From a virus (Duplodnaviria; Heunggongvirae; Uroviricota; Caudoviricetes), in IMG/VR virus record IMGVR_UViG_2574180019_000010, positions 1-39,851 of that record: DNA of 39,851 bases, one strand, 5' to 3'. Under the pieces are notes generated by a model, which was not told the origin of the DNA, searched no databases, and was given only the letters and a program-made list of their open reading frames with translations. Of the stretch, positions 28,570 through 32,205 are shown one piece after another. Position 1 is the first letter of the stretch; every line of letters starts with the position of its first letter. The position numbers and the translations under genes were made by a program.

Positions 28570-29382
28570 TCACTTTTCCGACACAATAAGACTGGAGGAA
28601 TCTACAATCTGTCGGACAATATCCCGGTACTTGTTCAGCTCCCGCAGCGCGGCGCAGACTCGCTCCCACTTCTGGACATGACTTTTCGCCCGACGCAGTT
28701 CGCGGTTTGCCATATGCAGCGATGGTAAAATCAGGTCATCCGATCGCGTTTCGGTGAACGATGGCAGCGACTGCACAATGTCCGCCACAGTTTCTGTTTT
28801 AATATCTTCCTGTGTTGCAGCTTCCTGTACTGGTAACGCAACACATGCAGGCTGAGGAAAGGCTTTACCATCAGTTTCCGCTACCGATGCCGCTTTCGGC
28901 TCTGCTGGTAAATTATCGCCCGGTATGCAGTAACGAAATTTACCGCCCTGATTTACGCGAATCAGACGACCTTTGCTGATTGCCATTGCCAGCGTTGAAG
29001 CCACTTTGCGTGATGTGGTACCAAACAATGTAGCCAGCTCATCAGCCGTTTGTGGTCCGCGTTGTTCAATCGTCGCGGTTAAATCGCACTCTGAGATTTT
29101 CGCTACTGTTGCTGTGGTGGTTTCTTCCGGCAGTTCTGCCTGCGCTGGCTGTTCCTGCTGAACGTTGTTATCAGCCACACGCCAGGTGTACGCGCTTTTA
29201 TCAACAAAACCAGCCTTTTTCAGTTCCCATAGTTCGTTCAGCACTTCTTCACGACTGATATCAAGTCGCGCAGCAAGTTCTATGGATGTGGCTTTTCCCA
29301 TTGCTTTCAGTGCGTCAAAAACAGTCTCCATTAAATTTTTCTCCCGGTAAAAATTACTTCGCAATTCCTGGCTGGACGACAT
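28570..29382 (-). CDS. Hypothetical protein with winged-helix-like N-terminus
   Basis: 270 aa; start uncertain (29382 or 29331). Confidence 0.35.
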
Positions 29383-30100
29383 TCGGACGCCAGCTCTCCC
29401 AGTTAAAATTCACCCAACACCCGCCGTTCATGGTCATGCGATCCATAATCCTCTCGCCGAGCAATGTTTTCATGGCCTCATAGTTCAGGTTTGTCAGCAT
29501 TCCCACGCTACGCATCGACGCTGTCCGTCGATCAATAATCTGGTGCAGTACCACCTGCTCGTTTTTCGTCTCGCGCTGAATGCCAATTTCATCAAGAACC
29601 AGCAGATCCACTTCGCACAGCTCCCGCAAAAATTTTTCGCCTGACTGCCCGTCGTCATAGCTGGCGTGCAGGGCGCTCATAACATCAGCCACGGTAACCA
29701 CAATCACTGTCTGACCGTCTTTCAGCAGGCGATTCCCGATAGCTGCCGCTAAGTGATTTTTCCCGGTACCAGGTTTTCCGCTGAACGCAAAATTTGTACA
29801 CCCGGTCATCAGTTCATCGGCGATGGATTTCGCCTGGCTTAACGCGTATCGCTGCCCTTCGTTCTGCACCTGGTAATTCGCAAACGAGCATTTGCGGTGC
29901 AACGGCTGGATGCCAGAGCGATTCAGGATTTTTTCCACCCGCAACTGACGATTCAGGCGGTTGATCTCCTCGCAACGTTTCTGGCCTTCAGCAAGTTGCC
30001 ACTCGCGCCACTCCGCAACCGTTCTGAATGGGGCGGTTACATGTGGTGGGGTCAGTCTGCGGATACGCTCCAGAACGCCTCCTGTCGCAATATTTTTCAT
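29354..30100 (-). CDS. Replication helicase loader, DnaC-like ATPase
   Basis: 248 aa; Walker [10 protein letters not shown] and Walker B LLVLDE; follows the initiator-like gene. Confidence 0.7.
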
Positions 30101-30106
30101 GGTCCG

Positions 30107-30895
30107 TTACCCCCTGAAGCCTGGCGGGATCGCACTGTCCGGCAACGAGACGGTGTTAACCTGTCGGAGCAACGTCTCAGGCCGAACACCTTTCGGCACG
30201 AACAGGCCCTGGTATTCATTGGCGATGCTGTGTCGAATCACCTGCTCAGGTGTAAAACCCTGCTGACGGAATTTTTCCAGCTCCCGTATCGCCCCGTTAG
30301 CGCCCTGCTCCGTTCGAATCGGTTTTCGCAATGCCTGCCTGAACTGAACCCACTCATGCCAGAGTGTTTCCGGCAACCAGTCAGGCAGCTCGATAGCCTC
30401 CGGCTCGAATTTTTTAGACGCTCGTTTTTGGCGAGGGGGATTTAGGGGGAGATCAGTATTTATATCTTCCTCTTCCTCTTCCTCTGGTAACGCTTTTTGA
30501 TCCGTTTGTGTAACGCTGGCAGCGTTACCTTTTCGTTTCAGTTCGCGTATTTTTGTTACTCGCTCGTTTGTAACCGCCCGTTTTTTAGAGCTTTTCCCGT
30601 TATGACGTTCAAAGTTAGGTAGAGAAAGCCCACCGTCATTTTCGATCAGCCATCCAACCTGAATTAACGCATCAGCAAAACCAGCCATAAAAGTGATGCG
30701 ATCTATTGCACTTTTTGTAACGCCGCGAGCGTTACAATCTGCATTACCGTCTATCATTTGTTGATCCGCCCATGCCCAGAAGCGAATAACCTTCCCTAAT
30801 GCGGCATCTGGATCAATATTCAGAATCTCAGCAAGCCTGAATATTTCCGGCTTATCCGGCGTAATAACCTCGAGCTTTATCCAGTTTGAAGCCAT
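30107..30895 (-). CDS. Replication initiation protein, YdaU/DUF1376-like
   Basis: 262 aa; acidic EEEEEED linker; contains repeated palindromes. Confidence 0.5.
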   Translation of the reverse strand: MASNWIKLEVITPDKPEIFRLAEILNIDPDAALGKVIRFWAWADQQMIDGNADCNARGVTKSAIDRITFMAGFADALIQVGWLIENDGGLSLPNFERHNGKSSKKRAVTNERVTKIRELKRKGNAASVTQTDQKALPEEEEEEDINTDLPLNPPRQKRASKKFEPEAIELPDWLPETLWHEWVQFRQALRKPIRTEQGANGAIRELEKFRQQGFTPEQVIRHSIANEYQGLFVPKGVRPETLLRQVNTVSLPDSAIPPGFRG

Positions 30896-30931
30896 TTGTT
30901 TTCACCTTGTAACGCTCGCAGCGTTACATTT
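30486..30931. repeat. Repeated TTGTAACGC...GCGTTACA palindromes; candidate origin or operator sites
   Basis: 19-bp palindromes at 30510-30528 (perfect), 30716-30736 and 30908-30928, plus half-sites at 30486-30493 and about 30570. Confidence 0.5.
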
Positions 30932-30972
30932 AACTGATACCGAACAAAACAATCCGGCACGATCAATTTCAA

Positions 30973-31395
30973 TCAATGCACTACGACAGAATCGCCGGGC
31001 GACCCACCACCGCTGAAATGTGCTTTCCGGTAAACGGCCTGGACTGCATCATCATGCGCATCAATTGCCGTACTCAACGCTTCCTGCGCCGCCAGTAATG
31101 CACGGCGTTCCAGGGTATCGAAGATGCAGAGTCGGTGACGCAGCTCGCGCGGAAGAATTGCCAGAACCGCAGGGATCAGTTTCTGAATTTTTTCCCTTTG
31201 CGCTTTCGTTTCACCTTTCAACCAACGGTGATAGATATTCTGCTGATTGTTCCAGTCCTTGCCTGGTACAAGGGGCAATTCGCCGCCCCCCTGGCGCAGA
31301 TATTCTTCAGTAATTGCGTTAGCGACCCACGCCTGCCCTTTTTCGGCTGCCAGGGCTAACAACACTGATTCGATGTGCTCATGCCTGATTTTCAT
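30973..31395 (-). CDS. ydaT: YdaT-like protein
   Basis: 140 aa; start MKIRHEHI and C-terminal GGSPGDSVVVH resemble recalled K-12 YdaT; coupled to the ydaS-like gene. Confidence 0.5.
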   Translation of the reverse strand: MKIRHEHIESVLLALAAEKGQAWVANAITEEYLRQGGGELPLVPGKDWNNQQNIYHRWLKGETKAQREKIQKLIPAVLAILPRELRHRLCIFDTLERRALLAAQEALSTAIDAHDDAVQAVYRKAHFSGGGSPGDSVVVH

Positions 31396-31634
31396 GAATC
31401 AACCGCTCCTATGCTGTTTTCGCTATGCTTACCGTCTGGGGGGAATACATCGTCAAGTCCACAATGAGCGCCAAGCCGATTAAGGGTAGAAACAATTTTT
31501 CTGCACTCCTCTAGTCCAGGGGTACGAAAATTTGCTTCGTAATTTGCCAGTCGGCTTTGTATCCACCCTAACTGAACAGCAAGTTGTCTTTGAGACAGCC
31601 CAAGCTGTTTTCGATATGTTGAAATTTTGTTCAT
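31392..31634 (-). CDS. ydaS: YdaS-like Cro-type HTH regulator
   Basis: 80 aa with HTH LGLSQRQLAVQLG; divergent from the racR-like gene. Confidence 0.55.
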   Translation of the reverse strand: MNKISTYRKQLGLSQRQLAVQLGWIQSRLANYEANFRTPGLEECRKIVSTLNRLGAHCGLDDVFPPDGKHSENSIGAVDS

Positions 31635-31658
31635 TGAAAACCTCCGATGACAATTTTA

Positions 31659-31719
31659 AACACACCTTGTGTTATATGGTCAAGCTGTTTTGTGTTTTAT
31701 GTAAATCACGATTCGTGAT
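31659..31719. promoter_or_regulatory. Divergent control region with operator-like palindromes
   Basis: AACACA-CCT-TGTGTT at 31659-31673 and ATCACGA-T-TCGTGAT at 31705-31719. Confidence 0.45.
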
Positions 31720-31730
31720 ACAAGGATGCA

Positions 31731-32150
31731 ATGGAAAAAGAAAACGAAAAAATTGCCGCTAGTAGGCTCAATGACAAAATTGCAATGCGTCTTAAAGAGC
31801 GCAGGCAGAAGCTTGGTTTATCTCAAGGAAAACTTGCTGAAATCTGCGGATGGACGCAATCGCGTATAGGTAACTATGAGGCGGGCAGCAGAAATGTTGG
31901 AGTGCATGACGCTGTCGTATTGGGAAAGGCACTTGGCATATCTCCTCCTGAGCTCCTATTTGGAGAACAGGAATCTTCTGAATTGTGGTTAAATGAATCC
32001 CAACGAAAACTTCTTGAGTTGTTTAACCAGCTACCGGGCTCAGAACAACAACGAATGATTGAGCTATTTGAAGTCCGGCTAAAAGAAATCGATGAGTATG
32101 TAGAAAAATATTTGAGAGGCAGGCTTAAAGATAATCCCCCACCGGAGTAA
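31731..32150 (+). CDS. racR: Prophage repressor, RacR-like
   Basis: 139 aa with HTH LGLSQGKLAEICG; SD AAGGA; divergent from ydaS/ydaT. Confidence 0.6.
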   Translation: MEKENEKIAASRLNDKIAMRLKERRQKLGLSQGKLAEICGWTQSRIGNYEAGSRNVGVHDAVVLGKALGISPPELLFGEQESSELWLNESQRKLLELFNQLPGSEQQRMIELFEVRLKEIDEYVEKYLRGRLKDNPPPE

Positions 32151-32180
32151 TGATCTTGCTATCACAGTAATATGCCAATC

Positions 32181-32205
32181 AGCCCGCTATCAGCGGGCTT
32201 TTTTG
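32181..32205 (+). terminator. Rho-independent terminator after the repressor gene
   Basis: Stem AGCCCGCT / AGCGGGCT followed by TTTTTT. Confidence 0.7.

Follow-up and report, generated by a model that had tools for sequence, protein, structure and literature searches.

Why does a short, perfect palindrome recur inside a phage gene for a replication initiator, and once more in front of it? The question is raised by a stretch of tailed-phage DNA (39,851 bp, hereafter the window) in which the element GTAACGC-N5-GCGTTAC has three exact matches, at 30510-30528, 30717-30735, and 30909-30927. An initial annotation had proposed either an origin, with the palindromes as initiator-binding sites, or operators of an autoregulator. 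The comparisons described here make it fairly probable that the palindromes are binding sites for the initiator and form a lambda-style replication origin inside the initiator gene. As far as the searchable literature shows, this is most likely an undescribed variant of the lambda-type origin-inside-initiator design; searches covering ydaU, oriJ, the epsilon15 origin, and the exact dyad sequences returned no description of these sites.

Palindromes and half-sites in the window

The palindromes are non-random. By chance 0.07 matches are expected in the window, none of 100 dinucleotide shuffles yielded three, and no fourth copy exists in the 39,851 bp even when two mismatches are allowed. The copies start 207 and 192 bp apart, which bears out the initial annotation of a 19-bp palindrome present three times at roughly 200-bp spacing. 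All three share identical 7-nt arms, extended outward in the second and third copies, and the 5-nt spacers are unlike one another (Table 1). Palindromes 1 and 2 lie within the initiator ORF, and the third lies 12-32 nt 5′ of its ATG, in the 77-nt gap that separates it from the ydaT-like ORF, just as annotated.

The two additional half-sites noted earlier, at 30486-30493 and near 30570, are both present. The first is exact, lies 23 bp from the right arm of the palindrome 1 dyad, and adjoins a polypurine tract; the second (TGTAACCG at 30569-30576) carries one mismatch. A further, decayed half-site is found 12 bp from palindrome 2, where a 12-bp (4-codon) insertion relative to other class-A genes has created an extra half-site; L002 and many viral contigs have an exact GTAACGC at the equivalent position. 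The three palindromes are only the most visible members of phased clusters of half-sites. We refer to the group around palindrome 1 as cluster II, which occupies gene nt 368-409 in the part encoding a predicted disordered linker (aa 96-160), and to the group around palindrome 2 as cluster I.

Table 1. Features of the replication module, in window coordinates
Feature	Position	Strand	Sequence	Remarks
ydaV	29354-30100	-		DnaC/IstB-like AAA+ ATPase; Pfam IstB_IS21 E = 1e-19, Bac_DnaA E = 9e-9
Replication initiator gene	30107-30895	-		262 aa
AT-rich stretch	30455-30465			Candidate DNA-unwinding element, with the following run
Polypyrimidine run, 20 nt	30466-30485	+		Candidate DNA-unwinding element, with the preceding stretch
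Cluster II extra half-site	30486-30493		GGTAACGC (gene strand GCGTTACC)	Exact
Cluster II full dyad (palindrome 1)	30509-30528		(T)GTAACGC-TGGCA-GCGTTAC	Encodes G-N-A-A-S-V-T, inter-domain linker
Basic-segment codons H98-R117	30545-30604	-	HNGKSSKKRAVTNERVTKIR	Candidate specificity-determining peptide
Degenerate half-site	30569-30579		TGTAACCGCCC (gene strand GGGCGGTTACA)	Within basic-segment codons K-R-A-V-T
Cluster I full dyad (palindrome 2)	30715-30737		TTGTAACGC-CGCGA-GCGTTACAA	Encodes C-N-A-R-G-V-T, low-confidence loop aa 52-60 of the N-terminal domain
Cluster I decayed half-site	30741-30747		GCATTAC (gene strand GTAATGC)	12 bp from palindrome 2
Upstream dyad (palindrome 3)	30908-30928		TGTAACGC-TCGCA-GCGTTACA	Ends directly before the initiator gene's Shine-Dalgarno AGGTGA
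YdaT/CII-like gene	30973-31395	-		
Cro-like HTH gene	31392-31634	-		
Repressor gene	31731-32150			Divergent

The initiator and its neighbors

On the minus strand, genes for a Cro-like HTH protein and a YdaT/CII-like protein precede the initiator gene, which is followed by ydaV, and a divergent repressor gene lies beyond the cro-like gene. YdaV is presumed to be the helicase loader that partners the initiator. The initiator is named a hypothetical protein in RefSeq, and it matches PHROG 2509 ("replication initiation protein") end to end with E = 9e-90. A match to PHROG 678 ("O-like") is limited to aa 77-236. No Pfam family is found at E ≤ 0.01, Pfam and NCBIfam together yield only a weak DnaT-like C-terminal tail, and a PDB sequence search with the initiator gave nothing useful.

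The description of the ORF as YdaU-like holds for one end of the protein. Its C-terminal part has about 94% DNA identity to K-12 ydaU (window 30100-30364), but the N-terminal part, which bears the palindromes, is unrelated to K-12 YdaU. The full gene is present in about 680 of 5426 complete E. coli genomes, with at least a partial match in 1516. Among phages, the N-terminal module is fused to different C-terminal domains, and it also occurs in phages of Klebsiella, Enterobacter, Salmonella (SPN1S, epsilon15), Xanthomonas (CP2), Ralstonia, Pseudomonas, Vibrio, and Cobetia. A protein search with the N-terminal 123 aa returned mostly fragments and close relatives; sequence diversity was taken from a phage collection and viral contigs.

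Four parts can be distinguished in the protein: a predicted winged-helix domain (aa ~10-95), a basic segment (aa ~98-120), an acidic disordered linker, and a C-terminal helical domain of the YdaU/lambda-O-like kind. In an AlphaFold2 model built from a 29-sequence alignment (mean pLDDT 67), the N-terminal aa 10-95 form a confidently modeled helical domain with a β-hairpin, predicted to be a winged helix. It is followed by a low-confidence basic helix (aa 104-120), the disordered acidic linker, and the helical C-terminal domain. Each cluster falls in codons for a loop or linker that the model places with low confidence; as modeled, this is where the protein tolerates DNA sites.

Conservation and shared layout among relatives

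The initial annotation had let its reading stand or fall with conservation of the palindromes in homologous replication modules, and they are conserved there. The comparison covered about 150 related loci, taken from phages of enterobacteria, Xanthomonas, Ralstonia, Pseudomonas, Vibrio, and Cobetia. All 70 distinct close-to-moderate homologues found in viral contigs have both intragenic dyads, and so do phages at 45-67% protein identity; palindrome 1 keeps its position in the gene in every relative of class A (GTAACGC). Among these phages, those of Klebsiella, Enterobacter, and E. coli are at 51-67% identity. The dyads, with fixed arms and varying spacers, extend to phages of Xanthomonas and Ralstonia, where identity is 42-47%. 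For example, Xanthomonas phage CP2 (45% identity, GC-rich host) has a perfect GTAACGC-N5-GCGTTAC as its first site, and its second consists of four half-sites at 12-bp steps (> > < <) followed by AGAGAAGAGAAGAGAAGAGAAGA.

The loci share a common layout. One cluster is universal. It lies at gene nt ~335-480, where the domain linker is encoded, and adjoins a polypurine tract, beyond which comes a short AT-rich stretch. A second cluster, at gene nt ~55-200 and some 200-290 bp upstream of the linker cluster, is present in most genes, and a third before the start codon is found in some lineages only. This upstream dyad sits at -31/-32, at -41 to -43, or at -98, and among the viral-contig and phage loci compared it is absent from the TL-2011b-type lineage. 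The genes upstream are unrelated among lineages, and the dyad stays with the initiator gene whichever gene lies 5′. A common helical phase between clusters was considered and rejected, as the distances of 192, 207, 209, 216, and 279-300 bp share none.

The half-site itself comes in at least five words: GTAACGC (class A), GTCCGC (class B), GTAGACG, GTGACG, and GTCACA. GTCCGC is used by SPN1S, epsilon15, BUCT711, phiPSA1, RPZH3, and the Cobetia phage, GTAGACG by Raharianne, and TGTCACA by the Vibrio phage; Dimitile has four direct GTGACG repeats at 12-bp spacing. Clusters within one gene always use the same word, and no locus with mismatched classes was found.

Selection on the DNA and the half-site lattice

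Codon usage was analyzed in a set of 20 class-A genes made non-redundant at <93% nucleotide identity. Conservation at third codon positions is about 0.55 on average in this set and rises to 0.95-1.0 in the arms of the dyads, in the terminal half-site, and in the polypurine tract. The frozen codons are GGT50, AAC51, xGC58, GTT59, TTA136, CCA137, and GAG/GAA138-143. At the exact half-site 30486-30493 (codons A135-L136-P137), third-position major-base and major-codon frequencies are likewise 0.95-1.0; at the degenerate half-site 30569-30579, third-position conservation of codons 104-108 is 0.8-1.0, a value noticed post hoc. In columns with conserved amino acids, the major codon has a frequency of 0.88 at motif codons versus 0.55 elsewhere (Mann-Whitney p = 4e-9), the motif set being partly post hoc, with codons 104-109 added after the profile was seen. 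The codon before the Asn is always xGT, whereas its amino acid may be G, C, or S. Length variation in the family consists of 12-bp N-A or V-T units exactly at the two cluster positions. These patterns show that selection at the motifs acts on the DNA and not on the protein.

The half-sites also follow a regular lattice. Neighbors in the same orientation are 11/12 bp (120 cases), 22/23 bp (54), or 33 bp (12) apart, and 191 of 207 such distances deviate by no more than 1.5 bp from a multiple of 11.5 bp; convergent pairs are separated by 13, 24, 35, or 46 bp. Since these distances are not multiples of 3, the copies occupy different reading frames, and the lattice places them on one face of the helix, as cooperative binding to duplex DNA predicts. 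Neither the shared helix face nor the change of frame would be expected of a peptide repeat or a simple RNA hairpin.

The polypurine tract and a candidate origin

On the gene strand, 30466-30485 reads as a polypurine (GAG GAA)n. Among the 30-mers of 29300-32200, the segment 30455-30485 ranks first for purine/pyrimidine skew and third for low stability. A polypurine tract directly follows cluster II in every divergent relative examined, and its frame differs by group (PEEEEEED versus TREEKRRED), so that the DNA tract is kept rather than the peptide. Cluster II, with palindrome 1, and the adjacent polypurine tract probably make up the core of the element, judging from the sequence comparisons.

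We note that the initial annotation did not mention this tract. Its stability in the window is only moderately low (rank 3 in 2.9 kb), and the same DNA encodes the acidic linker.

A working scheme can be drawn from this layout. Initiator dimers would bind the 19-bp dyads, and more subunits would occupy the flanking half-sites along the ~11.5-bp lattice on one helix face. The complex at cluster II (30486-30528) may then destabilize the adjoining polypurine/AT-rich tract (30455-30485), and the initiator C-terminal domain together with the DnaC-like YdaV would recruit the host helicase. At distances of about 200 and 400 bp, cluster I (30715-30747) and the upstream dyad could serve as auxiliary sites by keeping more initiator close at hand, by holding the complex together through a loop, or by limiting read-through into the initiator gene. 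The upstream dyad may be auxiliary to the origin, autoregulatory in the manner of an operator, or both. The comparisons establish that the sites exist, are conserved in a common layout, are under selection as DNA, and are inherited along with the initiator gene. From this arrangement we infer that the initiator binds them, that the strands open at the polypurine tract, and what the distal sites do.

Comparison with known origins

The closest parallel is the origin of lambda, where four 19-bp dyads with 7-nt arms and 5-nt spacers span 85 bp and are followed by ACAAAAGAAAAAAGAAAAGATTATT, all in the linker-coding part of gene O (PMC7466680). Extra iterons add residues to the O protein, and earlier work cited there found two iterons plus the AT-rich tract to suffice for unwinding (PMC7466680). 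In lambda ori/O, and in phi80, 82, P22, and Stx phages, the origin sits in the initiator gene where the inter-domain linker is encoded, and the putative origin of the window has this location too. The dyad geometry is the same as in lambda, and so is the polarity, the purine-rich AT-rich tract following the sites on the coding strand. In both families the site sequence is matched to the N-terminal half of the initiator, an interchangeable C-terminal half pairs with a helicase-loading partner, and extra sites lengthen the protein. Conservation of the palindromes and this correspondence of layout (dyads, then a purine-rich AT tract, in the linker-coding part) support the origin half of the initial annotation and favor it over the operator half.

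There are also clear differences from lambda. Unlike O, the window initiator has no match to Pfam Phage_rep_O, and its N-terminal module belongs to PHROG 2509/9474. Only one full dyad, one exact half-site, and one degenerate half-site lie by the tract, compared with four to six tandem dyads in lambda-type origins. The other two dyads are 207 and 399 bp from the cluster II dyad, an arrangement not seen in lambda, and the 11-12-bp lattice of the half-sites likewise sets the family apart.

Other systems resemble the module in part. In the iteron plasmids (pPS10 RepA, R6K pi, F RepE, P1 RepA), a winged-helix initiator binds phased short repeats beside an easily melted tract; direct and inverted repeats coexist, and an inverted repeat before the initiator gene is an autorepression operator. 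The window likewise has phased repeats beside a candidate unwinding tract, direct half-sites together with inverted ones, and an inverted repeat before the gene, and its initiator may be a winged-helix protein, going by the model. No sequence relationship was found. Its sites are embedded in coding sequence, its gene belongs to a phage early operon without a recognizable promoter of its own, and its repeats are palindromes plus direct half-sites at 12/23 bp rather than three to seven tandem direct repeats of 17-22 bp.

The oriJ/ydaU-ydaV region of the Rac prophage of E. coli K-12 occupies the same slot, in the order repressor, cro-like, ydaT, initiator, and ydaV, and there the C-terminal initiator domain and ydaV are nearly identical to those of the window. 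K-12 ydaU has the same three-part layout with a motif of its own, (A)TGTTCAAACA, at gene nt -21, 148, and 360-460, followed by an A-rich tract; both the repeat motif and the N-terminal module, which is of the DUF1376 type, differ from the window. Finally, bipartite phage origins are represented by P4 (ori plus crr) and by SPP1 (oriL inside gene 38 plus oriR). As with the putative binding sites of the window, initiator-binding repeats occur in at least two separate places, one of them in or beside the initiator gene. The clusters in the window are about 200-400 bp apart, compared with kilobases in P4 and SPP1, and the initiators are unrelated.

Alternative explanations

The strongest competitor holds that the sites are autoregulation operators only, at which the initiator or some other regulator represses or roadblocks initiator-ydaV while the origin lies elsewhere. 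Perfect dyads are typical of dimer operators, the upstream copy abuts the Shine-Dalgarno sequence, and inverted half-repeats act as Rep operators in iteron plasmids. We nevertheless consider this unlikely: no sigma-70-like promoter is predicted near any dyad, the upstream copy is missing from whole lineages and shifts between -31, -43, and -98, and the universally conserved cluster is an intragenic one beside the polypurine tract, whose conservation an operator leaves unexplained. It is a good deal less probable that the palindromes work as hairpins in RNA (or single-stranded DNA), for mRNA stability, processing, translation, or priming. Each dyad does fold into a stable 8-10-bp hairpin (z ~ -3 versus shuffles), but any palindrome folds well and the folding energy is therefore uninformative. 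The arms are invariant in sequence within a class and do not co-vary, so that covariation carries no information either. Hairpins are contradicted by the many half-sites that keep to the strict 11-12-bp lattice as direct repeats or as unpaired extras, with four direct repeats in one lineage and > > < > in another; moreover, the distance from the upstream copy to the start codon varies. Palindrome 1 with its T-rich run is flagged as terminator-like on the plus strand. This terminator signal was set aside, as it concerns the antisense strand of palindrome 1 only and is lacking at the other two dyads; on the gene strand no T-run follows any dyad.

Marginally less probable again is a different binder, either a host factor or one of the phage proteins (the CII-like YdaT, the Cro-like HTH protein, or the repressor), an idea that draws on the three DNA-binding regulators adjoining the module. 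Phages of one host, however, use different motif classes, and a given class turns up in several hosts, from E. coli to Xanthomonas. Loci with the same motif have neighbors as varied as YdaT, small Zn-ribbon-like ORFs, methylases, DnaC-like, DnaB-like, and DUF1064 proteins, and the initiator gene is the only one always linked to the motif. There is next to no likelihood that the palindromes lack a DNA-level function and are a by-product of an N-A-x-x-V-T peptide repeat, or of coincidence combined with common descent. In keeping with such a by-product, the two intragenic copies share a reading frame and encode N-A-x-x-V-T. Yet synonymous positions are frozen, the flanking amino acid is limited to those with xGT or xGC codons, one copy of the palindrome is in non-coding DNA, and half-sites 11, 13, 22, and 23 bp apart occupy different frames. 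The peptide segments fall in predicted disordered loops, and other classes put their sites at other positions in the protein. The synonymous-site and reading-frame analyses effectively refute this by-product explanation.

What reads the motif

C-terminal domains shuffle independently of motif class: Klebsiella phi3.2 (GTAACGC) and BUCT711 (GTCCGC) are 99% identical in the C-terminus, and YL1 and RPZH3 are 87% identical. Motif class instead tracks the N-terminal half, specifically the basic segment that follows the winged helix. One subfamily has a single winged-helix type and no cluster I (Xanthomonas SAC, Cobetia Carin1, and 40 viral contigs). Classes A and B are intermixed on the winged-helix tree of these 42 genes. 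The winged helix was accordingly rejected as the specificity determinant in this subfamily, with within-class identity of 68.7% versus 67.3% between classes. Within the same subfamily, all 23 genes with GTAACGC sites encode K(K)R-x-x-T-A-K-R-V, and all 19 with GTCCGC sites encode KRR-x-x-[DE]-x-x-R-K. This class-separating segment directly follows a conserved HNG-x-SAK, with no exception in the 42 genes. The window protein has KKRAVTNERV, the class-A form.

These correlations suggest a specificity cassette made of the basic peptide and its DNA sites. Linkage alone could yield the correlation between peptide and motif, as the segment lies 10-60 nt from the site and between two conserved stretches, and the Vibrio class combines a B-like basic segment with a different motif. 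It is a tentative proposal, with rather less than an even chance of being right, that origin specificity resides in a portable cassette of ~100 bp, comprising the ~12-residue basic peptide after HNG-x-SAK and the downstream sites it reads. The flanks of such a cassette, HNGxSAK and the polypurine tract, could be recombination points. If the proposal is true, phages would change the identity of their origin through exchange of the cassette, whichever winged-helix domain they carry, and any second cluster elsewhere in the gene would have to match it. A basic helix or arm, and not the winged helix, would then recognize the sequence, a compact case of a DNA reader encoded beside its own target.

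Significance

Origins inside initiator genes are already covered by the lambda paradigm; it is the gene family that is new for this principle. The candidate origin gives a concrete starting point for a widespread and unstudied replication module, which is carried by Rac-like prophages in about 28% of complete E. coli genomes (1516/5426) and also by epsilon15/SPN1S-like Salmonella phages, the Stx-region phage TL-2011b, and Xanthomonas, Ralstonia, Pseudomonas, and Vibrio phages. The repeated N-A/V-T peptides, the 4-residue indels, and the poly-Glu linker, which are oddities of the protein, would be imprints of DNA sites on the coding sequence. The five natural specificity classes with exchangeable parts offer a system for following how initiator-origin specificity evolves, and they could supply orthogonal origin/initiator pairs for engineering.

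Related and unrelated repeats

The layout seen in the window recurs, with another motif, in ydaU of the E. coli K-12 Rac prophage (L099). Unlike that of the window gene, the N-terminal half of the K-12 protein is of the DUF1376 type, and its gene carries a repeated motif of its own, (A)TGTTCAAACA. The copies follow the same three-part arrangement, with one just 5' of the ATG, a second within the N-domain and the remainder clustered in the linker. An A-rich tract comes after the linker cluster, and 3' of it lies a GATCCCCCCCTAAATCCCCC stretch common to the window gene. These repeats may underlie oriJ, the Rac origin, at the sequence level.

A further sub-group of viral contigs (L145-L157) is marked by the basic segments KRRAVMAKASSKYR or KRRSTEAKRMQFVR and has neither GTAACGC nor GTCCGC sites. 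Several members instead feature a GTCCCC-N3-GGGGAC dyad, and in these the polypurine tract has moved to about gene nt 560. The sub-group possibly represents a sixth specificity class.

Relatives of the epsilon15/SPN1S type contain an additional palindrome family, (A)TTACC-N5-GGTAA(T). Its copies lie on both sides of the replication module, one of them just 3' of the initiator gene, and the epsilon15 annotation describes them as repressor binding sites. This family is distinct from the putative origin-type sites.

Two other elements were observed in the window. The arms of a perfect 11-nt inverted repeat (GGGCGGTTACA / TGTAACCGCCC) lie 527 bp apart, one early in ydaV, the other being the degenerate half-site within the basic-segment codons; this pairing may be due to chance. 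A second stable hairpin, GUGCCGGAUUGUUUUGUUCGGUAUC, follows the ydaT stop codon and precedes the upstream dyad; it lacks a T-run and is kept in close relatives (L002, L010).

Positions of repeats, junctions and conserved segments
Feature	Sequence	Position
(A)TGTTCAAACA copies	K-12 ydaU (L099)	gene nt -21, 148, 360, 392, 426, 452
GTCCCC-N3-GGGGAC dyad	several of L145-L157	gene nt ~424-441
(A)TTACC-N5-GGTAA(T)	L007 (SPN1S)	52-68, 793-809, 2356-2372
(A)TTACC-N5-GGTAA(T)	L092	2228-2244
(A)TTACC-N5-GGTAA(T)	L004, L005	
11-nt inverted repeat	window	30031-30041, 30569-30579
Hairpin	window	30936-30960 (-)
Deletion junction	L001	3100-3150 (equivalent to window ~30737)
Insertion point of long initiators	window	~30440-30455
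Initiator C-terminal tail (aa 244-262)	window	30107-30163

Rearrangements and the C-terminal tail

In E. coli Combat13F7 (L001), a deletion joins the initiator gene to an HTH regulator gene that is truncated; the annotation lists both genes as pseudogenes. The fusion begins just beyond palindrome 2, the N-domain dyad, with the junction within a few bases of it; besides ydaT and the upstream dyad, some 50 codons at the 5' end of the initiator gene are lost.

Many E. coli and Salmonella relatives (P0060-P0107, e.g. P0062 and P0097; loci L017, L020) encode initiators of 374-380 aa. The extra length comes from a ~114-aa in-frame insertion that follows ...EEEEDINTDL, directly 3' of the polypurine/AT tract. 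Pfam gives no match to the insert, whose GRIDIVV...IELD...K stretch resembles a PD-(D/E)xK nuclease. The insertion could be mobile and target the putative origin.

The window initiator ends in a conserved tail, ...VSLPDSAIPPGFRG, which shows weak similarity to the C-terminal end of primosomal protein DnaT, at E=0.004 in NCBIfam, well short of the cut-off, and at E~0.5 against PDB 2ru8/6aep. This weak match is probably why relatives are annotated as 'primosomal protein I'. The shared DnaT-like tail may act as a docking peptide that contacts the helicase or the helicase loader.
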